From NCBI GenBank assembly GCA_041499755.1, contig JBGQKV010000001.1, positions 1 to 54,417 on the forward strand: 54,417 bases of DNA. Direction: 5' to 3'. This document shows, in pieces, positions 1,949 through 26,895 of the stretch (the stretch's first letter is position 1; each line of letters opens with the position of its first letter). A program made the position numbers and the translations under genes. The notes below the pieces were generated by a model that ran no database searches, was not told where the DNA came from, and saw only the letters and a program-made list of their open reading frames with translations. The DNA comes from Minisyncoccia bacterium (GTDB taxonomy: Bacteria; Patescibacteriota; Minisyncoccia; Phycocordibacterales; UBA9973).

Positions 1949-1952
1949 ACAA

Positions 1953-2231
1953 ATGAGCAATTTGCTTGAATTTTATGGTACTGAATGCCCGCACTGTGTG
2001 CGGATGCACGAGCTTGTAGAACGCTTGGAAACCGAAGAAAAAGTGAAGGTGGATGCTTATGAAGTCTGGCACAATGATGAAAATGCCAAGAAGCTTGAAG
2101 AGTTGGATAAAGATATGTGCGGAGGGGTGCCGTTCTTCTATAATACAGATACAAAGAAATTTATTTGCGGAGAAGATTCATATGAAATATTAAAAGCTTG
2201 GGCGAAAGGGGAGCCATTCACCCAAAGTTAA
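1953..2231 (+). CDS. thioredoxin/glutaredoxin-fold protein (CPHC motif)
   Basis: FYGTECPHCV active-site-like motif near the N-terminus and a late GGVPFF motif, in a 92-aa protein. Confidence 0.6.
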   Translation: MSNLLEFYGTECPHCVRMHELVERLETEEKVKVDAYEVWHNDENAKKLEELDKDMCGGVPFFYNTDTKKFICGEDSYEILKAWAKGEPFTQS

Positions 2232-2245
2232 TCATATACAATAGT

Positions 2246-3055
2246 ATGCCAATAATTGAAGTAAAAAATTTAACAAAGAAATTTGGAGCAGGAGAAAATA
2301 CAGTCATAGCCGTTAATAGCGTCTCCTTTTCTGTGCCAGAAGGAAAAATTTTTGCATTCTTGGGGCCGAACGGTGCTGGAAAAACTACGACTATTAAAAT
2401 GTTGACGACGTTGCTAGAGCCGACAGGAGGGGATGCTCTAATAAACGGTTTTGATTTAAAAAACGAGCGAGATAATATCCGTCACTCTTTTGGCATAGTT
2501 TTTCAAGATCCAAGTTTGGATGATGATCTGTCTGCATATGAAAATATGGAATTTCACGCTGTTTTGTATGGAGTAGGTAAAGCAGAGCGGGTGAAAAGAA
2601 TTGAAGAGCTTTTAAAATTAGTTGATCTGTGGGATCGAAAAGGAGATTTTGTGAAAAATTATTCTGGAGGGATGAAGCGCCGGCTGGAAATCGCTCGCTC
2701 TCTGATCCACACGCCAAAAATTATTTTCCTAGATGAGCCGACGGTAGGCCTTGATCCACAGACTCGCAATCATATCTGGTCTTATGTGGTAAATCTTTCT
2801 AAAAAAGAAGGAGTGACAGTTTTTTTAACCACGCACTATATGGAGGAAGCTGATAAAATGGCGGATAACGTAGTGATCATTGATCATGGGAAGATTATAG
2901 GCTCTGGAACCCCGGAGGAATTAAAAAGTAAAACCGGTACGACTTCTTTAGAAGAGGCTTTTTTGAAGTTAACTGGTAACACTATCCGTCCTGATGAGGC
3001 GACTTCTATGGATGCACTTCGCTCACAAGCCAGAATGTGGGGTAGGAGAAAGTAA
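2246..3055 (+). CDS. ABC transporter ATP-binding protein
   Basis: Walker A GPNGAGKTT, signature YSGGMKRRL, Walker B IIFLDEPT. Start moved to the ATG at 2246 (MPIIEVKNLTKKFG), which removes the overlap with the upstream gene. Confidence 0.9.
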   Translation: MPIIEVKNLTKKFGAGENTVIAVNSVSFSVPEGKIFAFLGPNGAGKTTTIKMLTTLLEPTGGDALINGFDLKNERDNIRHSFGIVFQDPSLDDDLSAYENMEFHAVLYGVGKAERVKRIEELLKLVDLWDRKGDFVKNYSGGMKRRLEIARSLIHTPKIIFLDEPTVGLDPQTRNHIWSYVVNLSKKEGVTVFLTTHYMEEADKMADNVVIIDHGKIIGSGTPEELKSKTGTTSLEEAFLKLTGNTIRPDEATSMDALRSQARMWGRRK

Positions 3056-3984: not shown

Positions 3985-6900
3985 ATGAAAAAAATTCTTA
4001 GCGTTTCTCTAGTCGCCCTTTTTATTATAAGCCTCAGTCTTTTAGTCGTTTCAAAAACTTACGCCCAAACGGATCCAGATCCTATTCCTCCATCCGATAC
4101 GCCAAGTGATACTCCACCGCCTGCGGATGTTCCAAGTGATACACCCCCACCAGCTGATGTTCCACCTGCTCCAATCCCTGTGCTTACGACTGATCAAGCT
4201 GATTACAATCCTGGCGACACCGCTAATATTTTTGGAAATCTTTTTCCATCGCTCCAAAATTTTGTTTTGAGGATTTTTGGTAATTCAGAAATTGGTAATC
4301 ACTATACAGATACATCTTTTACCGTAAACTCTGATAACGCTGGAAGTTTTTCTTATGCTTATCTTCTTGATAATATGTACCGCCCGCTTTATACGGTAAC
4401 AGCAAGCACTCTTGATGGTGAAGAAATTGCTAGCACTACATTTACTGATGCTGCAGGCGCAGGTGTTGATGTTTATTCTCAATGCGCAAATGACGATGGA
4501 GACGGTTATACAGGAAATCCAGGAGTTTGTAATTGGACAAACGGAGATCTTAACGGAAGCAACTCTACGTACACAGAAGAAGATTCAACAGTACAACGAC
4601 TTGTAATAAGTGGGTTATCAAACGGAGCCCACACCGTTGTTGTTGAATATCAGACTACCAAAGGAGGAAAACATGCATACGATTTTTTAACTAACGATAC
4701 AGCTTCAGAAACTTGGGTTACTGACGCAGATCTTTGCAGTGGCCCAGTAACTACAGCAATGCCATCATGTACTTCTTTGAGCTCTAATCTTTCTCCATCA
4801 CTCCCTCACGATACGTTAAATACATTAGGAACAGATGATACTAATCAGCATTTCAAGATTAAAAATGGAACAATTACTTCTTTTGGAACACCTACATTAG
4901 TAAACGGTTCTTATGGAGCAGATAGTTTGACGGATATTGCAGTAAACTTTACGGTAAACACAAGTACTTGTGCTGACGCAAGTAATAATGGGAAATGTCC
5001 CGTCTTTATAACTTGGGGTGCACACGTTTCAAGTCAAGCTGATTGGGGAGCTGGTTCTTCAGCAGTGAATATCAGTGGTTCTCCTTACCACGTTAAAGTA
5101 GTTGAGCTTGATGGCGGATCAACAGGCAATCGCGACAATCAAATGGCTGCGAGTGCAATAGTTATTCCAAATACTATTACGATTCATAAAGTCACTGACC
5201 CTTCAACTGACACAACAACTAGCTTTACTTACACAACAACAGGTACAGGTTTTAGTGGATTTAATTTAACTGGTGGTACTTCCAATACACAAAATGTTAC
5301 TCCAGGTTCTTACTCAATTACAGAAAGTACTCTTTCTGGTTGGGGAGTTACAGGACTTACTTGTAGTGCAACTGGGACAGGCACTAGTGCTACACCAAAT
5401 GTCGGCACTCGCTCTGTCGCAATCACAGTTGGTTCTGCCGGTGGCGGAGTTGTAGATTGTATTTATACAAATACTTTACAGCAAGCACATTTAACTTTAG
5501 TTAAAACTGTTACCAATGATAACGGAGGTACTGTAGTAGCAACTGCTTGGACATTAAATGGTTCTGGACCAACACCGATTTCTGGTGCTACTGGAAGTGG
5601 CGCAGTTACTAACGCAGCTGTGAACGCTGGCACTTATGCATTATCTGAAACTAGTGGACCATCCGGATATACAGCTGGATCATGGACATGTTCAGGTGGA
5701 ACACAAAACAGTAGCAACATTACTCTTACTGCAGGACAGAGCGCTACTTGTACAATAAATAATAATGACAACGCTCCATCTCTTACCCTTAATAAAATAG
5801 TAGTAAATGATAATGGAGGCACATCTCTTGAGAGTGCTTGGACTTTGACAGCAAATGGTCCAACGACAATTTCTGGTCCTGGCGCAGCTGGTTCTACAGA
5901 TGTTGTTTCTGGTTCTAATTTCTCTGCTGGCACTTATGCTCTTTCTGAATCTTCTGGTCCATCTGGATACACTCCAAGTGCTTGGACTTGTACGGGCGGA
6001 ACACAAAACGGCAGCAACATTACTTTGACTATTGGCCAATCTGCAACTTGTACAATAACAAACAATGACAACCCAGCTCATTTGATAGTCATCAAGCACG
6101 TAATAAACGATAATGGAGGGACAGCTACAGCTTCAAACTTCACAATGACAATCGGAGGAGTGACCGCTGTCGGCGGAAATTCATTTGCCGGTGCTGAGAA
6201 TCCTGGAACAGATAAGACTCTTTCTACTCTCGGTGCATATACTGTTACTGAAGGCGCAATGGCAGGTTACACCCAAACATCCGCTTCAGCTGATTGTTCT
6301 GGAACAATTGCACAAGGTGAGACAAAAACTTGCACTATCACAAACAACGACATTGCCCCAACTCTTACTCTCATAAAAACTGTAATTAATGACAACGGCG
6401 GTACAGCAACGACAGCAAGCTTTCAGGGCATGATTGATAGCGGAAATGTTCCATGGACCATAGCTCAAACAACCACTGCTGGCGCACACACTGCATCTGA
6501 AACTACTCTTCCAACATACGCAGCCGGGAACTGGGGAGGAGATTGTGCTGCAAATGGAACAATCACTCTTGCGCTTGCACAGAATGCAACTTGTACTATC
6601 ACGAACAATGATATTCCAGCTCACCTTATTGTTATTAAACATGTGATCAACGACAATGGAGGCGCTGCATTAGCAAATACTTTCACAACTACAATTTCTT
6701 CTGTCACTACTGCTACTCCTACAGCCGCTGGAGTTGAATCTCCGGGCGTAGATAACACTTTGACTTCTGTCGGTGCATATTCTGTTGACGAAGGAGCACA
6801 CGTTGGTTATGTCAAAACACTTTCTGCTGATTGCACAGGATCAATTGCACTTGGCGAGACAAAAACTTGTACAATCACCAACGATGACATTCAGCCAAAA

Positions 6901-9900
6901 CTAACTTTAACTAAAATTGTTGTGAATGATAATGGTGGTAATGCTGTAGTTTCTGACTTCCCATTATTTGTGAACGTAACAGGCGTAACGAGCGGAGTAC
7001 AAAATGGTTTCAATGCTGGTGTTTACACCGCATCCGAAACAAATCTTACAGGTTATACAGCCGGCTCATGGACAGGGGATTGCGCAGTAAACGGATCTGT
7101 CACACTCGCACCTGGAGATGTAAAAGCTTGCACGATAACAAACAATGATCAACCTGCACACATCATTCTTAATAAAGTAGTAATAAATAACAACGGCGGG
7201 ACAGCTGGAATAAATGATTTCGGACTTACTGTCGGAGGAAACGCAGTTAATTCCGGAGTTAATTCTTCTGTAAATTCTAATCAGGCTATTGCCTTAAATG
7301 AAGCAGGTCTTACTGGATACAATTTCGTGTCTCTCACTGGAGATGCGAAATGCCCATCAGTACTTAATGGTACAGTTACGCTCAATGAAGGTGAAACAGT
7401 TACCTGTACTATTACAAATGATGACATCCCTGCACACTTAATCGTGATCAAGCATGTGATCAACGACAACGGAGGTACAGCGGTAGCTGGAGATTTCACC
7501 ATGAACATTGGCGGAGTCACAGCAACGGGTGGTAATTCATTCGCTGGTGTTGAAAATCCTGGAACTGATAAAACATTGACATCAGTTGGTGCTTACACAG
7601 TCACTGAAGGAGCAATGACCGGTTATGCAGAAAGTGATTCAGCAGATTGCTCTGGCACGATTGCATTAGGCCAAACAAAAACTTGTACCGTAACGAACAA
7701 CGATATTTCTCCAAAATTAACCGTCACAAAAATTGTTATTAACGACAACGGTGGAACAAAAGTAGTATCTGACTTCCCACTCTTCGTGAATACGACAGGA
7801 GTCGTCTCAGGAGTGCAAAATAATTTTAACGCAGGTTCATATACCGTTTCCGAGACTGCTGATTCAGGCTACAGCTCTGTAATTTCTGGAGATTGTACTT
7901 CAAATGGTAGTGTCACTCTTGCATTAGGAGAGGTGAAAGCTTGTACGATTACCAACGATGATATTGCTCCAACTCTTACTCTCGTAAAAACTGTAATAAA
8001 TGATAATGGCGGTACAGCCGTCACCACAGACTTTCAAGGTAAAATTGATGGAGGCAATGTTCCATGGACTGTAGCGCAAACAACTTCTGCAGGTGCACAC
8101 ACTGCCACTGAAACTAATCTACCAGGTTACACTGCCGGAAATTGGGGAGGAGATTGCGCTGCGAATGGAACTATCACATTAGCTCTTGCTCAAAATGCGA
8201 CTTGTACGATTACGAATGATGACCAACAGGCTTACATTATAGTGAACAAGACTGTCATTAATGACAACGGCGGAACTGCGATAGCTAATGATTTCTTACT
8301 GACAGTAGATACTAATGCTGTCTCAGATGAAGTGGCATATGCAGTGAACCCTGGAACACACACAGCTGGCGAGACTTTACTTCCTGGATACTCTGCTGGA
8401 GCTTGGGGTGGAGATTGTAATGTAAGTGCTTCTGTCACTGTAGCTCTTGGCCAGACAAAGACTTGTACAATAACCAACGATGACATTCAACCAAAACTTA
8501 CTTTGATCAAGCACGTTGTAAATGACAATGGCGGAACAAAAATAGTTTCCGATTTCCCATTATTTGTAAATGCAACCGGAGTTACTTCTGGAGTGCAAAA
8601 CGGATTTAATGCTGGTGCTTACACTGCGTCTGAAACAAATCAGACTGGTTACACTGCATTAAGTTGGAGTGGAGATTGTGACGCGAATGGAAATGTCACG
8701 TTAGCAATAGGGGACACTAAGACTTGTGAAATCACCAACAACGACATCGCCCCAAAACTAACTGTCACTAAAATCGTAATAAACGATAATGGCGGAACAA
8801 AAGTAGTTTCTGATTTCCCACTATTCGTAAATACAACAGGAGTTGTCTCTGGAGTACAAAATAATTTTAACGCTGGTTCGTACACAGTTTCTGAAACAAC
8901 TGATTCTGGTTATAGTTCTGTAATATCTGGAGATTGTGCATCAAATGGCGCTGTAACACTCGCCCTTGCTGAAGTTAAAGCTTGTACAATAACGAACAAT
9001 GACATCGCGCCTACTTTGACTCTCGTTAAGACTGTTATAAACAATAATGGCGGTACTGCAACAACGACAAGCTTTCAGGGCATGATTGATAGTGGAAATG
9101 TTCCTTGGGCAGTAGCACAAACTATGACAGCCGGAGCCCACACTGCGTCTGAAACTACACTACCAGGCTACACTGCAGGCAATTGGGGAGGAGATTGTGC
9201 CGCAAATGGAACAGTTAGTCTAGCCCTTGGTCAGAATAAGACTTGTACTATTACCAATGATGATCAGCCAGCTCATTTGATTGTTATAAAACATGTCATC
9301 AATGATGATGGAGACGTGGCTATAGCTTCTGACTTCACAATGCATCTTACAGGTAGCAGTCTTTCAACTAATGATTTCGCTGGTAGTGAATCAGGTGTAA
9401 ATGTCACTTTAAATGCTGGAGCTTATACTGCAAATGAAGTATCAAGCGCAGGATATGCCAAGACACTCTCCGCTGACTGCTCAGGAACAATTGCAGTAGG
9501 ACAGACCAAGACTTGCACTATAACTAATAATGATATTCCGCACGCAACACGTACTCAAGGTTTCTGGCAGACCCATACCACTTATACTTCTGGAGTATTC
9601 GCAGGATTTAGTGGAGCACTAACGATTGGAACGCACAGCATTAATACTACTTCCAAACTCTTCGCTGGCTTTTATGCAAGTATTCCAAAGACTACGACTG
9701 GTTCACAGCGTACAGCGCTCGATAAAGCTCGAATGCAAATGCTTCAGCAGTGGCTCGCGGCAAAATTAAATTGTCAGTCATTCGGATGCAGTGCTGGAAC
9801 TCTAACAATGCTCGCAAATGCCGCTACAGCTTGGGCAACAACAAACACATCTTCAATTCAATCATTCGCTGGCCAGCTTGATGCCTACAACAATAGCAAC

Positions 9901-9996
9901 GACGCTCTGCCAATTTCAGGACAGGGAAGTGCAACACCAAAAGTTTCGCAATCGACTGCGGATGCTAGCCTTTCGTTTTGGAACGTCCTTCCATAA
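3985..9996 (+). CDS. giant secreted surface protein (2003 aa) with 15 tandem beta-sandwich-like domains
   Basis: Signal-peptide-like N-terminus (MKKILSVSLVALFIISLSLLVVSKTYAQ) and a Pro-rich PSDTPPPADVP repeat. A ~450-aa unique region follows, then 15 units with the signature L.(L/V).K.V(I/V)NDNGGT...C....G......(T/A)CTITN(N/D)D, then a ~150-aa unique C-terminal domain (TRTQGFWQTHT...). Confidence 0.85.
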   Translation: MKKILSVSLVALFIISLSLLVVSKTYAQTDPDPIPPSDTPSDTPPPADVPSDTPPPADVPPAPIPVLTTDQADYNPGDTANIFGNLFPSLQNFVLRIFGNSEIGNHYTDTSFTVNSDNAGSFSYAYLLDNMYRPLYTVTASTLDGEEIASTTFTDAAGAGVDVYSQCANDDGDGYTGNPGVCNWTNGDLNGSNSTYTEEDSTVQRLVISGLSNGAHTVVVEYQTTKGGKHAYDFLTNDTASETWVTDADLCSGPVTTAMPSCTSLSSNLSPSLPHDTLNTLGTDDTNQHFKIKNGTITSFGTPTLVNGSYGADSLTDIAVNFTVNTSTCADASNNGKCPVFITWGAHVSSQADWGAGSSAVNISGSPYHVKVVELDGGSTGNRDNQMAASAIVIPNTITIHKVTDPSTDTTTSFTYTTTGTGFSGFNLTGGTSNTQNVTPGSYSITESTLSGWGVTGLTCSATGTGTSATPNVGTRSVAITVGSAGGGVVDCIYTNTLQQAHLTLVKTVTNDNGGTVVATAWTLNGSGPTPISGATGSGAVTNAAVNAGTYALSETSGPSGYTAGSWTCSGGTQNSSNITLTAGQSATCTINNNDNAPSLTLNKIVVNDNGGTSLESAWTLTANGPTTISGPGAAGSTDVVSGSNFSAGTYALSESSGPSGYTPSAWTCTGGTQNGSNITLTIGQSATCTITNNDNPAHLIVIKHVINDNGGTATASNFTMTIGGVTAVGGNSFAGAENPGTDKTLSTLGAYTVTEGAMAGYTQTSASADCSGTIAQGETKTCTITNNDIAPTLTLIKTVINDNGGTATTASFQGMIDSGNVPWTIAQTTTAGAHTASETTLPTYAAGNWGGDCAANGTITLALAQNATCTITNNDIPAHLIVIKHVINDNGGAALANTFTTTISSVTTATPTAAGVESPGVDNTLTSVGAYSVDEGAHVGYVKTLSADCTGSIALGETKTCTITNDDIQPKLTLTKIVVNDNGGNAVVSDFPLFVNVTGVTSGVQNGFNAGVYTASETNLTGYTAGSWTGDCAVNGSVTLAPGDVKACTITNNDQPAHIILNKVVINNNGGTAGINDFGLTVGGNAVNSGVNSSVNSNQAIALNEAGLTGYNFVSLTGDAKCPSVLNGTVTLNEGETVTCTITNDDIPAHLIVIKHVINDNGGTAVAGDFTMNIGGVTATGGNSFAGVENPGTDKTLTSVGAYTVTEGAMTGYAESDSADCSGTIALGQTKTCTVTNNDISPKLTVTKIVINDNGGTKVVSDFPLFVNTTGVVSGVQNNFNAGSYTVSETADSGYSSVISGDCTSNGSVTLALGEVKACTITNDDIAPTLTLVKTVINDNGGTAVTTDFQGKIDGGNVPWTVAQTTSAGAHTATETNLPGYTAGNWGGDCAANGTITLALAQNATCTITNDDQQAYIIVNKTVINDNGGTAIANDFLLTVDTNAVSDEVAYAVNPGTHTAGETLLPGYSAGAWGGDCNVSASVTVALGQTKTCTITNDDIQPKLTLIKHVVNDNGGTKIVSDFPLFVNATGVTSGVQNGFNAGAYTASETNQTGYTALSWSGDCDANGNVTLAIGDTKTCEITNNDIAPKLTVTKIVINDNGGTKVVSDFPLFVNTTGVVSGVQNNFNAGSYTVSETTDSGYSSVISGDCASNGAVTLALAEVKACTITNNDIAPTLTLVKTVINNNGGTATTTSFQGMIDSGNVPWAVAQTMTAGAHTASETTLPGYTAGNWGGDCAANGTVSLALGQNKTCTITNDDQPAHLIVIKHVINDDGDVAIASDFTMHLTGSSLSTNDFAGSESGVNVTLNAGAYTANEVSSAGYAKTLSADCSGTIAVGQTKTCTITNNDIPHATRTQGFWQTHTTYTSGVFAGFSGALTIGTHSINTTSKLFAGFYASIPKTTTGSQRTALDKARMQMLQQWLAAKLNCQSFGCSAGTLTMLANAATAWATTNTSSIQSFAGQLDAYNNSNDALPISGQGSATPKVSQSTADASLSFWNVLP
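5480..9545 (+). repeat. coding tandem repeat array, 15 units of about 86-100 codons
   Basis: Units fall into subtypes: LIVIKHVINDNGG, LTLVKTVINDNGG..FQG.ID.GNVPW and LTVTKIVINDNGGTKVVSDFPLFVN. The blocks at 7714-8230 and 8755-9270 have the same subtype order. Confidence 0.9.
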
Positions 9997-10209: not shown

Positions 10210-13200
10210 ATGAAGAAAATATTATCTCATTTTGTTCCGGTCGTATTAGCAATAGCACTTTCCGTGACAGCCTCATTCGCTTTTGCTGCGGGGGGTCAAG
10301 CTATTTATAGTATAACTGAAACTCACACTGTCACTGCTACTGCGACAGGTTTTGTCGTTGATCTTAACGGCATTGCTTCTGTAACAAACCCTCAAGGAAA
10401 TATTAGTCAGTACCATGTTTCTGTTGATTGGTTAGGAAATGGTATATGGGAGCAAGTATCTTACTCCCCAGTTGGTAACAGCAATTTTTTTAGTGGTCCA
10501 TGGTCAGGCTCTCACACATTCACAGCACCAGGTCCCATTACGATTACTATAAAGTTGCATCATACTCAAACTGGTGGGCAAGAAAGTGGTGATGCGTCTG
10601 TTAGTTTTAATCTGACAATCCCTTCAGAAATTTGCTTAGACGGTATTGATAACGACTTTGATGGCTTTATTGACCTTGCTGACTCAGATTGTCTGCCTTA
10701 TTTTCCACACATTACTGTCACTAAAACAGTGATAAATAATAGTGGTGGAACAAAACTTCCAGCCAACTTTTCTCTTTTTGTAGACTCTACTCCAGTCACT
10801 TCTGGTCAGACTATATCGGTTCAGCCAGGTACTCACACTGTGAGTGAAACATTGGATCCAGAATACACTCAGACTAGTATTGGGGGGCAATGTGCATCAA
10901 ATGGCACTATTACTGTATTAGCAGGTATTGGAAATAACTACTCTTGCACCATTACAAATGATGATAAAGTAAATCTTCCCCCGGTCTTTACCTCAGTACC
11001 AACGTCAGTGTCTATACCTGAATTAGCACTTTATACTTTTAATGCTACAGCTACTGACCCAGAAAGCAATCCGATAACTTTTTCTCTAGTTGGCGCTCCA
11101 GCTGGAGCCAGCATAACTTCAGGCGGTGTCTTTACTTGGACTCCTACTGAAGCGCAAGGTCCAAATCTTTATACATTTAAATTTCGCGCCTCTGACAATC
11201 ATGGCAATAATAATGATGCCACAGTAAATATTACTGTTACTGAAGTGAACAGTGCTCCGGTTGCAGTGGATGACTCCAAGACTACTACAGAAGATGCACC
11301 ACTTACTATCTCACTTGCATCCCTACTTGCAAACGATACTGATAGTGATATTCCAGCGAACACCCTCTCTATCACTTCTGTTTCAGGAAATACCAATGGA
11401 GTAGCTGTATTAGGTTCTGACATAATCTTTACACCAGATGCTAACTTCAATGGTCTTGCCGGTTTTGATTACACTCTTTCTGATGGATCTCTTACCGACA
11501 CTGGTCACGTAAATATTACGGTCTCATCTATAAATGATGCTCCAGTGCTTGTAAGTATTGTTAACAAATTTGTTGATGAATTAAATAATTTACCTTTCGG
11601 TCTATCAGCTACGGATGTTGATGGAGACACTGTGACTTATTCTATTACTTCTGGTTTTCAGTCTGGTATGTCTCTCGGTTCTTTGTCAGGAGTTTTTTCT
11701 TGGACACCTTCTGAAGTTCAAGGTCCAGGAGTATACGGAATGACAGTAGAAGCAACTGACGGGCATGGTGGCGTAGACTCAAAATCTTTTGATATCAATG
11801 TTGCTGAAGTGAATGTTGCACCAGTAGCTTATAACGATCTTTCTGAATCAACCCATATGAATGTTTCAAAAAGTATAAATCTAAGCGCAGATGATTCCGA
11901 TATTCCAGCCAACAGTCTTTCTTACACAGTAGTTTCTGGGCCAACGAATGGCACACTTACTGAATGTTCCTCTTACCCATGTTCTTTGGGAAGCAACAAT
12001 GTGACTTATGTTCCTAATACAGATTTTATTGGTTCTGATTCATTTGTTTTCAAGGCAACTGATAACGGGATTCCTACTCTTACAAGTAATACAGCCACGA
12101 TCGGTATAATGGTGAATGATAGTGCTCCTATTCTTATTGATGTACCAACCAATACTTCTAGTGATCCAGTAGTTATCAATGAGGAAACAGGATACACCTT
12201 TGACGCTAACGCTACTGACGATGGTGATTCTCTAACCTTCTCTTTGGGAGCAGGCGCTCCAGTTGGTGCTTCTATTGATCCTTCCACAGGTATCTTTACT
12301 TGGATGCCAACCGAGGCTCAAGGCCCAGATTTATATTCTATTACCATAATTGTCAGTGACGGTGTGTTGTCTAGTTCTCAGACTTTCTCAGTCTCAGTTT
12401 TAGAAGTGAATGTAATCCCTGTAGCTAATATCCAATCAGTCACAACTCCAGAAGACACTGCAAAAGATATCACTCTTACAGGTTCTGATGTTGATGTTCC
12501 AGTTCAGGCACTTACTTTTACTATAGCAAGTAATCCTGCCCAGGGGACATTATCTGGTTTCAACTCTATAACTGGCGAAGTGACTTATATTCCAAATGCT
12601 GATTACAACGGCTCTGACTCTTTTACCTTTACAGTAAGTGACGGTGTTGCTATTAGCGCAGAGGCCACTGTTTCAATTACAGTAGACTCAGTGAATGATG
12701 CACCAGTTATCACTCTTGATGCTGGAGGCGATCCATTTACTGTTCTTACAGGTGATACTGATGCAGTTATCCCAGGAGCTACCTGTACGGACGTAGAAGG
12801 TGGAAATCTTGATGTAACTGTAACTCCCCCAACAGATCCAGCATATGATGCTAATGTGAACGGAACTTATGTTTTCCATTATTCATGTACTGATGGTGAA
12901 TTAACTGCTGAAACTACTCGCACTGTTATTGTTTCAGGAGAAAACACTCTCGCTCTTTGCTCTGATACTGTAGATAACGATGGGAATGACCTCACTGACC
13001 TTCTAGATCCAGCTTGCTTAGCTTTCAAACCAAAACTTACTGTTACTAAAGTTGTCATCAACGACAATGGAGGAGTGAAATTAGTTTCTGATTTCCAGCT
13101 CTTTATTGACGGCATAGCCACGACTTCTGGTGCGCAAGTCACATACAGTGCTGCTGGCTCACACATTGTTTCTGAAACTACTGATTCAAATTATACTGGC

Positions 13201-13725
13201 GTATTTAGCGGAGACTGTAATTCTTCTGGAAGCGTGACTGTTGCGATAGGTCAAACAAAATCTTGCACGCTTACCAATAATGACAACGCCCCAGTAATTA
13301 TTATTACGACTGGCGGCGGAGGTGGTGGAGGGCACCCTCCGATTGTTTCAACTCCTGGACAAGTCTTGGGTGCGACGGCAATCTGCCAAGTCTCACTTGA
13401 TGAGCATCTACGCAAGGGTTACAAAAACAAAACTGCTTCAGTAAAAGCTCTTCAAGCGTTCTTAAATAGCTACTTGAAAATAAATATGACAGTTGACGGA
13501 AAGTTTGGTCCAGGTACAGAGAAATATGTAAAAATGTTCCAAGGTATGTCTCCAAATAAAGAAGTAATCTTAGATCCATGGAATATTGACTCTCCTACCG
13601 GGCTTGTTTACCTAACGACTCTTACCAGGATGAAGAACATTATGTGTCCAGATCTAAAGTTGCCAGTGCCAGATAAGTCTACTTTAGTAGCTTGGAGCAA
13701 GAATCCTACCACTCCGAAGAATTAA
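10210..13725 (+). CDS. secreted cadherin/Ig-like repeat protein with C-terminal peptidoglycan-binding domain (1171 aa)
   Basis: Signal peptide, then two NDNGG-type domains like those of the upstream gene (about 10711-10975 and 13030-13295). These bracket about 7 units delimited by VN.AP / VAVDD motifs. A Gly7 linker precedes a PG_binding_1-like segment (VKALQAFLNSYL...VDGKFGPGTEKYVKMFQ). Confidence 0.8.
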   Translation: MKKILSHFVPVVLAIALSVTASFAFAAGGQAIYSITETHTVTATATGFVVDLNGIASVTNPQGNISQYHVSVDWLGNGIWEQVSYSPVGNSNFFSGPWSGSHTFTAPGPITITIKLHHTQTGGQESGDASVSFNLTIPSEICLDGIDNDFDGFIDLADSDCLPYFPHITVTKTVINNSGGTKLPANFSLFVDSTPVTSGQTISVQPGTHTVSETLDPEYTQTSIGGQCASNGTITVLAGIGNNYSCTITNDDKVNLPPVFTSVPTSVSIPELALYTFNATATDPESNPITFSLVGAPAGASITSGGVFTWTPTEAQGPNLYTFKFRASDNHGNNNDATVNITVTEVNSAPVAVDDSKTTTEDAPLTISLASLLANDTDSDIPANTLSITSVSGNTNGVAVLGSDIIFTPDANFNGLAGFDYTLSDGSLTDTGHVNITVSSINDAPVLVSIVNKFVDELNNLPFGLSATDVDGDTVTYSITSGFQSGMSLGSLSGVFSWTPSEVQGPGVYGMTVEATDGHGGVDSKSFDINVAEVNVAPVAYNDLSESTHMNVSKSINLSADDSDIPANSLSYTVVSGPTNGTLTECSSYPCSLGSNNVTYVPNTDFIGSDSFVFKATDNGIPTLTSNTATIGIMVNDSAPILIDVPTNTSSDPVVINEETGYTFDANATDDGDSLTFSLGAGAPVGASIDPSTGIFTWMPTEAQGPDLYSITIIVSDGVLSSSQTFSVSVLEVNVIPVANIQSVTTPEDTAKDITLTGSDVDVPVQALTFTIASNPAQGTLSGFNSITGEVTYIPNADYNGSDSFTFTVSDGVAISAEATVSITVDSVNDAPVITLDAGGDPFTVLTGDTDAVIPGATCTDVEGGNLDVTVTPPTDPAYDANVNGTYVFHYSCTDGELTAETTRTVIVSGENTLALCSDTVDNDGNDLTDLLDPACLAFKPKLTVTKVVINDNGGVKLVSDFQLFIDGIATTSGAQVTYSAAGSHIVSETTDSNYTGVFSGDCNSSGSVTVAIGQTKSCTLTNNDNAPVIIITTGGGGGGGHPPIVSTPGQVLGATAICQVSLDEHLRKGYKNKTASVKALQAFLNSYLKINMTVDGKFGPGTEKYVKMFQGMSPNKEVILDPWNIDSPTGLVYLTTLTRMKNIMCPDLKLPVPDKSTLVAWSKNPTTPKN

Positions 13726-14840: not shown

Positions 14841-14914
14841 GTCCTCTCGGCAGGAATCGAACCTGCATCACAACTTCCGCAAAGTTGCGTCCTATCCATT
14901 GAACGACGAGAGGA
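14841..14914 (-). tRNA. tRNA-Arg (anticodon GCG)
   Basis: Cloverleaf folded by hand: acceptor TCCTCTC/GAGAGGA, anticodon stem CAACT/AGTTG with loop TTGCGGA, T-arm GCAGG TTCGATT CCTGC. No encoded CCA. Confidence 0.8.
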
Positions 14915-16536: not shown

Positions 16537-16609
16537 CCCATCGCTTTCTGCGAGGTCTCGCCAGAGGCGATGAGAACTTACAATACTATAACATTTATTA
16601 TTCCCAGAG

Positions 16610-16694
16610 CGGAGGCGGTGAGATTCGAACTCACGATGGCTTGCGCCATGGCGGTTTTCAAGACCGCTCGTTTCAACCACTCACGCACGCCTCC
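16610..16694 (-). tRNA. tRNA-Ser (anticodon UGA), class II
   Basis: Acceptor GGAGGCG/CGCCTCC, anticodon stem GCGGT/ACCGC with loop CTTGAAA, long variable arm CATGGCGCAAGCCATC, T-arm GTGAG TTCGAAT CTCAC. Confidence 0.9.
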
Positions 16695-20936: not shown

Positions 20937-21247
20937 AAATTCAACTTTTCAAAAAAAAGAATAAGTTTTCTCACAGCAAATGGTCCATCATGAGCCCTGG
21001 ACGCCATTGGCACATCGCGCTTGCCCTCGCCTCTTTTTTGGTCGTAGCTTCATTTGCTTTTGGGCTATATCTTTTTATAGAAGAAAACAGAGCAATAGAT
21101 TCATTGTCACTAGATGATGGAAAAGTGGCAGTCGATACTATCAGCTACGAACGCATAAAAAAAGTTTTAGACATATTTACAGAGCGAGAAAAAAGATCAG
21201 AGGAAATATTGAATTCCCCAGCTTCTTTTTCTGACCCTTCACTTTAG
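20933..21247 (+). CDS. single-TM protein, last gene of the pil operon
   Basis: ATGA overlap with the pilO-like gene and one TM segment. Function unknown. Confidence 0.5.
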   Translation: MKIQLFKKKNKFSHSKWSIMSPGRHWHIALALASFLVVASFAFGLYLFIEENRAIDSLSLDDGKVAVDTISYERIKKVLDIFTEREKRSEEILNSPASFSDPSL

Positions 21248-21275
21248 AAAATTGCTCACAAATAATTTTTTTATG

Positions 21276-21347
21276 TGCCCCTGGCAGGAATCGAACCTGC
21301 ATCGACGGCTTAGAAGTCCGCAGTTCTATCCATTGAACTACAGGGGC
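21276..21347 (-). tRNA. tRNA-Arg (anticodon UCU)
   Basis: Acceptor GCCCCTG/CAGGGGC, anticodon loop CTTCTAA, T-arm GCAGG TTCGATT CCTGC. Confidence 0.85.
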
Positions 21348-21348
21348 T

Positions 21349-21466
21349 TGGTGCGCGGTCTCGGACTCTCCGACTACGTCGGCAGGTGATTTTCCGATTT
21401 ACAAGTAAATACGGAAAATCCTTTCGACCCCTGCACGCGAGGCAAGCAGTTGCCTCGCTACCGTGC
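21349..21466 (-). ncRNA. 118-nt tRNA-like structured element, not a decoding tRNA
   Basis: The 5' GCACGGT pairs with the 3' ACCGCGC, followed by A and CCA. The terminal 11 nt are identical to the tRNA-Val 3' end. Contains two long perfect hairpins. Spacers to the flanking tRNAs are 0 and 1 nt. Confidence 0.55.
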
Positions 21467-21542
21467 TGGTGCGCGGTGCAGGACTCGAACCTGCGACCTT
21501 CCCGGTGTAAACGGGTTGCTCTACCAACTGAGCTAACCGCGC
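21467..21542 (-). tRNA. tRNA-Val (anticodon UAC), CCA encoded
   Basis: Acceptor GCGCGGT/ACCGCGC, D-arm GCTCAGTTGGTAGAGC, anticodon loop TTTACAC, T-arm GCAGG TTCGAGT CCTGC, 3' ACCA. Confidence 0.9.
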
Positions 21543-21668
21543 CTGTTATTATCTATCTCAAATAAATAAGCTACAGTTATTGTTTAGATTAACGACCTAT
21601 CAAAACAGCTAACCGTGCATGAAGGTAGGTTACCTTATTTTTCAAGGCTTTTCAAGGGTTATTATAGT

Positions 21669-24022: not shown

Positions 24023-24106
24023 GCGCGGGTGGCGAAACTGGTAGACGCACTACCTTGAGGTGGTAGCGGGAGCAATCCTGTGGGAGTTCAAATCTCCCCC
24101 TGCGCA
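24023..24106 (+). tRNA. tRNA-Leu (anticodon GAG), class II
   Basis: Acceptor GCGCGGG/CCTGCGC, anticodon stem CTACC/GGTAG with loop TTGAGGT, a long variable arm, and T-arm GGGAG TTCAAAT CTCCC. Confidence 0.9.
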
Positions 24107-24113
24107 CAAAGTC

Positions 24114-26820: not shown

Positions 26821-26895
26821 GGTGGCTATGGTGTAGCGGTAGCACGCGAGCTTGTGGAGCTCTCTGTCTGGGTTCAACTCCCAGTAGCCACCCCA
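26821..26895 (+). tRNA. tRNA-His (anticodon GUG) with encoded G-1 and CCA
   Basis: An extra 5' G lies opposite discriminator C. Acceptor GTGGCTA/TAGCCAC, anticodon loop TTGTGGA. Confidence 0.9.

Follow-up and report, generated by a model that had tools for sequence, protein, structure and literature searches.

What fills the 118 nt between the genes for tRNA-Val(UAC) and tRNA-Arg(UCU) in contig JBGQKV010000001.1 of the Minisyncoccia bacterium assembly GCA_041499755.1? In the stretch that we analyzed, positions 1 to 54,417 of this contig (hereafter the window, 54,417 nt), these genes lie on the minus strand and the gap between them is taken up by a single element. A sequence-only reading had described this element as a tRNA-like, non-decoding structured RNA, and the coordinates, spacers, stems, hairpins and 11-nt tail that it listed are all present in the sequence. 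Our analysis placed the element in a tRNA-linked, strand-specific family of structured RNAs. The family has no Rfam 15 entry and is apparently uncatalogued, and the element is more aptly viewed as a divergent representative of this well-supported family than as a lone curiosity. With modest confidence, we favor the interpretation that the element encodes a non-decoding RNA of tRNA origin and tRNA-like shape, one of a family that Patescibacteria of the Paceibacteria type carry immediately 3′ of, and on the same strand as, tRNA genes.

Along the minus strand, the CCA of tRNA-Val ends at 21467, the element runs from 21466 to 21349, a single A stands at 21348 and tRNA-Arg begins at 21347, leaving spacers of 0 nt after the CCA and 1 nt before tRNA-Arg. 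The element sequence lacks a 7-nt anticodon loop. Neither ARAGORN nor the Rfam tRNA model RF00005 called it as a tRNA, even at E ≤ 10; the only calls at this site were the two flanking tRNAs. The earlier claim of a tRNA-like, non-decoding structured RNA is supported. The whole Rfam 15 scan at E ≤ 10 matched no further family to the element, so that no clean match to a known RNA family emerged. The predicted minimum free energy (MFE) was −49.2 kcal/mol (z = −3.7, below all 200 shuffles), and the tRNA-like fold, at −47.0 kcal/mol, lies ~2 kcal/mol off the MFE.

The family match was obtained with a model, R2, that covers the 5′ domain only (N7 acceptor copy, A, P2, GU(G) and the P3 5′ strand) and was built from 13 members with the window excluded. 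Across the 54-kb window, R2 gave a sole significant hit at 21429–21466 (30.7 bits, E about 1e-6), which starts with the very base that follows the tRNA-Val CCA and aligns the element’s P2 base for base. Because R2 was made without the window sequence, a match of 30.7 bits to the 5′ domain argues that the element is more than a chance arrangement.

The first relatives with the same tRNA pair were reached via the neighborhood of the RluA gene. In two of these loci, L002 (Val-X-Arg) and L005 (Arg-X-Val), the tRNA genes are separated by spacers of about 145 nt, which contain, as the window does, a hairpin with a CUGC loop and the motif GWGCMGGGGTCGARA with an AT-rich hairpin after it. At the corresponding site of the close relatives L089 and L091, the two tRNAs stand 3–14 nt apart and the site is empty; L093 carries a copy after tRNA-Arg instead. 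The contigs of the closest RluA homologues yielded no sister copy, as L001 and L151 end before the tRNA region, and L148, another RluA homologue contig, has a gene arrangement of the L002 type. The adjacent 104-aa open reading frame (ORF) had no homologues beyond the window itself. A metagenome scan with a 22-nt degenerate motif, taken from the element and two relatives, returned 53 loci. About 45 of these are clearly related, and eight (L106, L107, L113, L117, L135, L136, L145 and L147) are chance matches inside ORFs.

From 15 members and a structure derived by hand, we built a covariance model, R1, which detected 60 copies at E ≤ 3e-9 in about 45 loci, many of them without the search motif. 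The invariance of that motif’s sequence is partly ascertainment, part of the set having been found through it. In the R1 alignment, double (compensatory) changes occur at 35 of the 35 modeled pairs, and 92.7% of cells are paired, a percentage inflated by the fitting of the alignment to the model, against 71% in column shuffles and 39–53% when partners are slid by one to three columns. P2 aligns without gaps in 14 members, is 100% paired and covaries at all nine pairs; these hairpins were chosen for having a stem, which inflates their pairing, while their fixed length, loop and flanking nucleotides were not chosen. Relatives of the kind that the sequence-only reading proposed to look for thus exist, and their stems covary. 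About 20 further positions, unpaired or non-Watson–Crick, are highly conserved. Three observations assign the structure to the tRNA-sense strand, that is, to RNA: 60 of 80 copies retain one G·U pair, other G·U variants are present and reverse-strand models score weakly.

Whole-Rfam scans of L002 and L005 at E ≤ 10 returned no clean match to a known RNA family, the search motif was absent from 2.9 million viral contigs, and blastn with a canonical member found no match among phage or plasmid records. Full-text literature searches, whose coverage is incomplete so that an earlier description is possible, yielded no account of such an RNA in Patescibacteria or the candidate phyla radiation.

Linkage to tRNA genes is close throughout the family. 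Wherever a contig has a nearby tRNA, the element lies on its strand and, except at tRNA-Asn loci, directly 3′ of it. The preceding tRNAs represent about 20 anticodons: Val-UAC, Arg-UCU, Arg-GCG, Cys-GCA, Leu-GAG, Leu-UAA, Leu-UAG, Leu-CAA, Ala-UGC, Ile-UAU, Ile-GAU, Tyr, four Ser isoacceptors, Lys-CUU, Gln-CUG, Gly-UCC and a tRNA with a UUA anticodon. The 3′ tail of each family unit is a 19–24-nt direct repeat of the upstream tRNA that starts midway through the T-loop (CGAnUCC...) and stops a few nucleotides beyond the discriminator, with CCA only where the tRNA gene encodes CCA. With E denoting one copy, alternating tRNA-E-tRNA-E arrays occur in L097, L103 and L129, and orthologous Cys-E-Leu-E-Lys-E-Leu clusters with differing stem sequences are found in L097, L103, L109 and L129. 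Several diverged genomes thus keep copies at orthologous positions, with stem changes that compensate each other. In L102 (474–1091, minus strand), the UUA-anticodon tRNA, labeled ‘tRNA-Stop’ by ARAGORN, is followed by four tandem copies in which a type-2/B form alternates with the full tRNA-like form. At the tRNA-Asn(GUU) loci L119 (948–1043), L126 and L134 (215–305), family cores lie upstream of the tRNA and are flanked by copies of its 5′ end (acceptor 5′ strand and start of the D-arm), without a 3′-end repeat.

Full-length members share a common layout. The 5′ strand of P1 is a 7-nt version of the neighboring tRNA’s acceptor 5′ strand, identical to it or differing at one position (3 or 4); such single-position mismatches occur in L097, L103 and L109 as well as in the window. 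A single A, P2 (9 bp, GCRAGnnAA-CUGC-UUnnCUYGC), a GUG linker and the T-stem-like 5′ strand of P3 follow. At the place of the T-loop, members carry a conserved insert consisting of UCGAAA, P4 (GGC-GGA, an AU-bulged stem, GA-GCC), GG, P5 (GGUC-GA-GAR-A, an AT-rich stem, UA-YUC-GU-GACC) and GA, before the T-stem 3′ strand (P3), the acceptor 3′ strand (P1) and the discriminator with or without CCA close the unit. On this layout, P1 and P3 correspond to the acceptor/T minihelix of the neighboring tRNA, with P2 substituting for the D and anticodon arms and P4/P5 for the T-loop.

Subtypes depart from this scheme. Type 2 copies (L002, L005, L105, L124 and others) are without P1 and have a core closed by UUGUG/CACAA, in which CACAA repeats the tRNA discriminator and trailer; their 5′ strand can instead pair with the real tRNA end to form a long terminator-like hairpin. 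A ‘B’ variant reads GGGGUCGCGGAAA...UAUCUGUGAC and has a C-G pair in place of the A·G mismatch of P5. In L100 (778–818, minus strand), a P5 hairpin occurs by itself, with no P4, between GACCACAAG repeats, so that the P5 module can evidently stand alone, as in the window copy. Two L103 paralogues (1497–1602 and 2307–2415, minus strand) share a derived P5 (UUCGGGACC, loop GGGCA), and the P4 of one of them is identical to that of its orthologue in L118 (2903–3010, minus strand). This single case suggests gene conversion, or coevolution of P5 with a genome-specific partner.

The features of the window copy and its surroundings are collected in Table 1.

Table 1 Features of the element and of the tRNA region in the window.
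Feature	Position	Strand	Remarks
Whole element, 118 nt	21349..21466	-	Divergent member of the tRNA-3′-linked, tRNA-like RNA family
tRNA-Val(UAC), CCA encoded	21467..21541	-	ARAGORN; Rfam tRNA 70.6 bits; donor of the element’s acceptor and T-stem sequences
tRNA-Arg(UCU)	21275..21347	-	ARAGORN; Rfam tRNA 68.1 bits; 1 nt past the element
P1 5′ strand, GCACGGU	21460..21466	-	Acceptor 5′ strand of tRNA-Val with G3 to A; begins at +1 after CCA
P2, perfect 9-bp hairpin GCGAGGCAA-CTGC-TTGCCTCGC	21437..21458	-	Occupies the place of the D and anticodon arms
P3 5′ strand, GCAGG	21430..21434	-	Identical to the T-stem 5′ strand of tRNA-Val; follows a ‘GU’ linker, as in the family layout
P3 3′ strand, CCUGC	21382..21386	-	Identical to the T-stem 3′ strand of tRNA-Val
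P5-like module, GGUCGAAAG then an AT-rich 9+5-bp hairpin (21388–21420, 33 nt)	21387..21429	-	Agrees with the family motif GWGCMGGGGTCGARARRWTTTT; placed on P5 in the R1 alignment
Hairpin UCGGA-GAG-UCCGA	21361..21373	-	Remodeled T-arm remnant; not found in canonical family members
P1 3′ strand, ACCGCGC, with discriminator A and CCA	21349..21359	-	Identical to the tRNA-Val 3′ end
Terminator-like hairpin and U-run after tRNA-Arg	21200..21219	-	Consensus scan only; would end a Val-element-Arg transcription unit

Within the window copy, the first 7 nt, GCACGGT, pair with ACCGCGC at six of seven positions, the exception being A3·C70; the tRNA-Val counterpart, GCGCGGT, differs by one G-to-A change. 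The final 11 nt, ACCGCGCACCA, are those of the tRNA-Val 3′ end, and similarity reaches 17 of 20 nt (a 20-nt direct repeat, 85% identical). Three internal structures noted in the sequence-only reading are present and can be assigned. The perfect 9-bp CUGC hairpin is the conserved P2. The ‘T-loop-like GGTCGAAAG’ with its inserted hairpin appears to be the family’s conserved P5 module and not a T-loop with a random insertion. The short TCGG/CCGA hairpin is a remodeled T-arm remnant that, when aligned to the T-arm of tRNA-Val, has kept GAGUCC. In the family, P5 consists of GGGGUCGAGAAA, an AT-rich hairpin and UAUUCGUGACC. The window copy agrees in the 5′ half and the hairpin, and its 3′ half has ACCUGCCGAC in place of UUCGUGACC. 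With a P5-bearing T-stem and a shrunken second T-arm beside the acceptor strand, the copy is predicted to adopt a four-helix cloverleaf topology, as opposed to the three-way junction of the family. In place of P3 (GCAGG/CCUGC), the window copy could alternatively form a GUCG/CGAC pairing.

Five of the six window tRNAs carry no family copy according to R1 and R2. Besides tRNA-Arg(UCU), these are Arg-GCG (14841–14913), Ser-UGA (16609–16694), Leu-GAG (24023–24107) and His-GUG (26822–26895). Additionally, GCACGGTTAGCTGTTTTGATAGGT at 21595–21618 (minus strand) repeats the first 24 nt of tRNA-Val in degenerate form (76%). It precedes the real gene by ~55 nt and shares the G3-to-A change with the first 7 nt of the element. 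In L002, too, tRNA-Val is preceded by a similar box (about 1950–1975, minus strand).

How might such an element be expressed and act? Because spacers of 0 and 1 nt leave no space for an internal promoter or terminator, tRNA-Val, the element and tRNA-Arg probably share one transcript, and the sole terminator-like site that a consensus scan detected on the minus strand of the tRNA region is past tRNA-Arg. In the sequence-only reading, release of the element as a discrete RNA by tRNA-processing enzymes had been considered, and for RNase P this remains plausible with such spacers. A cut at the 5′ end of P1 would also generate the mature CCA end of tRNA-Val, and a second cut at the 5′ end of tRNA-Arg would leave the element ending in ACCA plus 1 nt. 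The liberated RNA, of about 118 nt, is expected to be stable and would be unable to decode. Most aminoacyl-tRNA synthetases require anticodon or elbow elements of the tRNA; because these are absent here, charging of the RNA is unlikely. An RNA that cannot decode and is unlikely to be charged would work through its inserted domain, P5 with or without P4, which could most plausibly serve as a binding platform for a putative partner. The element may have the regulatory or mimic function that the sequence-only reading raised. Duplication or recombination where the tRNA 3′ end is repeated might generate further copies, in the manner of the tyrT/rtT repeats of Escherichia coli. Patescibacteria genomes are tiny, so that a structured RNA present in many copies beside tRNA genes is unlikely to be idle.

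Several observations weigh against a functional RNA gene at this locus, in addition to the inflation of the R1 and P2 pairing figures mentioned above. On the core model R1, the window copy scores only 15 bits (E 0.05–0.3), because it is without P4 and diverges in the 3′ half of P5. The P4 module (GAAAGGC-GGA, hairpin, GA-GCC) is absent from the copy, the extra hairpin makes it atypical, and it could be a degenerating copy. The sole other instance of the window variant, L008, is an identical contig from a sequencing run, and the covariation described above concerns the stems shared by the family. For the family as a whole, no protein family recurs beside the elements beyond ordinary synteny. 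Lastly, some members (type 2 copies and L129a) show little or no P1 pairing, so that release by RNase P may not be general.

Some of these points would fit a non-functional relic, in which a canonical copy or a tRNA-Val duplicate has lost P4, become rearranged and is carried along in the tRNA operon. We regard this as unlikely, if far from negligible. The low core model score and the missing P4, the duplicated T-arm remnant, the A·C mismatch in P1 and the empty site in the close relatives L089 and L091 are what decay could produce. The remaining helices, however, are perfect (P2 9/9, P3 5/5, hairpin 9+5, UCGGA-GAG-UCCGA 5/5), the 3′ tail equals the tRNA over 11 nt, the fold has z = −3.7, and the 5′ domain equals the family consensus base for base. 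Moreover, the one-position acceptor mismatch recurs in L097, L103 and L109, and P5-only units exist elsewhere, as in L100. A decaying tRNA-Val pseudogene in particular was rejected, since only the acceptor strands, the T-stem and the T-arm remnant resemble tRNA-Val and the interior consists of family modules with perfect helices. The same anatomy disposes of a true tRNA gene carrying nested insertions and spliced to a decoding tRNA, an option raised in the sequence-only reading. An acceptor stem, discriminator, CCA and T-stem are indeed present, but neither the element nor the family members inspected have a D-arm or a 7-nt anticodon loop, neither ARAGORN nor the Rfam tRNA model reports a tRNA, the stem and loop of P2 are fixed at 9 bp and 4 nt, and an intact tRNA-Val adjoins. 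We consider this option effectively refuted.

The arrays raise the question of mobility. The family might be a selfish, non-autonomous repeat aimed at tRNA 3′ ends, spread by recombination at the duplicated tRNA 3′ end, or by reverse transcription that starts at the tRNA-like CCA end and switches template onto tRNAs, its RNA structure serving propagation and not the host. For the second route, the Mauriceville retroplasmid of Neurospora provides a parallel. Many copies on a contig, some of them in tandem, presence and absence at the orthologous Val/Arg site, the repeat of the upstream tRNA 3′ end with which each copy re-creates its target, the segment antisense to the tRNA end in type 2 copies and derived P5 changes shared by paralogues within a genome would all be expected of such a repeat. 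It is nevertheless a rather improbable account, as no reverse transcriptase, integrase or transposase recurs nearby, no copy was found in the 2.9 million viral contigs, in phages or in plasmids, and terminal inverted repeats are lacking. Orthologous copies that persist in diverged genomes with compensatory changes are instead typical of selected genes. Marks of a miniature inverted-repeat transposable element or insertion sequence were not seen either: the only inverted repeats in the element are its internal hairpins, its direct repeat is the 11–20-nt tRNA end, and within the neighborhoods of the elements no recurrent ORF family suggested a transposase. A bolder version, which we hold to be improbable, sees an RNA-level selfish or catalytic element specialized on tRNA ends, whose P4/P5 core would cleave or ligate tRNA-like ends or recruit a polymerase that copies the tRNA 3′ end, thereby re-creating the target and spreading from tRNA to tRNA; if true, it would yield both the arrays and the matched acceptor and T stems. 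Very improbable in our estimation is a cis-acting processing element or small ribozyme, with nucleotides of the P4/P5 junction catalyzing or directing a cleavage that matures tRNA ends or splits arrays. Strict tRNA linkage with co-orientation, the about 20 highly conserved unpaired or non-Watson–Crick positions, the head-to-tail arrays and a P5 that would be long enough to fold back along the P1/P3 minihelix speak for it. It is countered by the lack of likeness to any Rfam 15 ribozyme, by the absence of the element from most tRNAs in the same genomes (five of six in the window) and by sequences from which no cleavage-site logic is derivable. We retain, at the modest confidence given above, a gene for a non-decoding, tRNA-derived RNA.

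Other structural and functional proposals were rejected. Kissing of the P2 CUGC loop with GCAG in the P4 or P5 loops suits L097, L103 and L118 but, on inspection, not L128, L130 and L133. Inspection likewise gave no kink-turn in P4, where the GGA/GA internal loop is without a 3-nt bulge, and sarcin–ricin loop mimicry by UCGGA-GAG-UCCGA lacks the bulged-G motif. A TnpB/Cas12-type guide RNA, with a scaffold and the tRNA end after a GTT motif as 3′ guide, was dismissed because no nuclease gene lies nearby, the putative guide would be partly sequestered in P3 and its target would be the cell’s own essential tRNA gene.

Elsewhere in the window, we identified genes for PilM/N/O-like proteins, the RluA pseudouridine synthase, L19, a P-type ATPase and ArgRS. 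Two very large genes on the plus strand encode surface proteins, one of 2003 aa with 15 SpaA_2 prealbumin-fold repeats (3985–9996) and one of 1171 aa with Big_9, cadherin-like, He_PIG and peptidoglycan-binding domains (10210–13725). Both are typical of adhesins of episymbiotic Patescibacteria.

For genome annotation, the family concerns units that are now left as blank spacers between tRNAs. It would also represent a new class of tRNA mimic with which to probe the substrate rules of RNase P and the CCA enzyme, possibly offer a handle on tRNA operon processing in organisms with reduced RNase sets, and provide a natural case of tRNA genes remodeled into other RNAs.

The family was also compared with known systems. 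YrlA, a bacterial Y RNA-like RNA, does not decode either; one of its modules mimics tRNA, and tRNA-processing enzymes act on it. It keeps the D- and T-loops and adds a Ro-binding stem, whereas in the element the T-loop itself is replaced. As a candidate identity, YrlA (RF02553) was rejected at 15.1 bits against a gathering threshold of 69, the weak match overlapping the tRNA-Val T-arm and the start of the element; no Ro60-like (rsr) protein was found among the part of the window ORFs scanned against Pfam and PHROGs. The stable RNAs of phage T4 (species 1 and 2; rnaC/rnaD) are small RNAs in the T4 tRNA cluster that are matured by tRNA-processing enzymes. They are phage-encoded, whereas the family was absent from viral contigs and phage records, and a sequence relationship is not expected. 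The tRNA-like domain of transfer-messenger RNA (tmRNA) and viral 3′ tRNA-like structures resemble the family in that an acceptor/T-arm minihelix with a CCA end bears a foreign functional domain where part of the tRNA body would be. Those structures, however, keep the T-loop and insert at the anticodon region. In the family, it is the T-loop that gives way to the insert, and a plain hairpin stands in for the D and anticodon arms. ARAGORN found no tmRNA in the window, and the element contains no tag reading frame.

In its organization, the closest analogue is the tyrT-tyrV-rttR locus of E. coli, which encodes rtT RNA. E. coli K-12 has six copies of the 19-nt tRNA-Tyr 3′ end (T-loop to CCA). Three of them follow tyrV at intervals of 178 nt, and the end of the annotated rttR coincides exactly with one copy. 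One 19-nt copy also lies inside the tyrT-tyrV spacer (L153, 1286200–1287800; locus positions 1164–1182). Both systems place a non-coding unit directly 3′ of a tRNA on the same strand, end it in a copy of the tRNA 3′ end and form tandem arrays, and the release of rtT by processing of the tRNA transcript is what we propose for the family. rtT is reported to take part in tyrT transcript processing and likely to modulate the stringent response (bioRxiv 10.1101/2024.07.17.603846). The two share no sequence or Rfam similarity, and the Rfam rtT model had no hit in the window, L002 or L005 at E ≤ 10. Whereas rtT is bound to one tRNA in enterobacteria, the family follows about 20 tRNA species and, in contrast to rtT, has covarying P2, P4 and P5 modules; in many members the acceptor 5′ strand is copied as well, which gives the whole RNA the shape of a tRNA.

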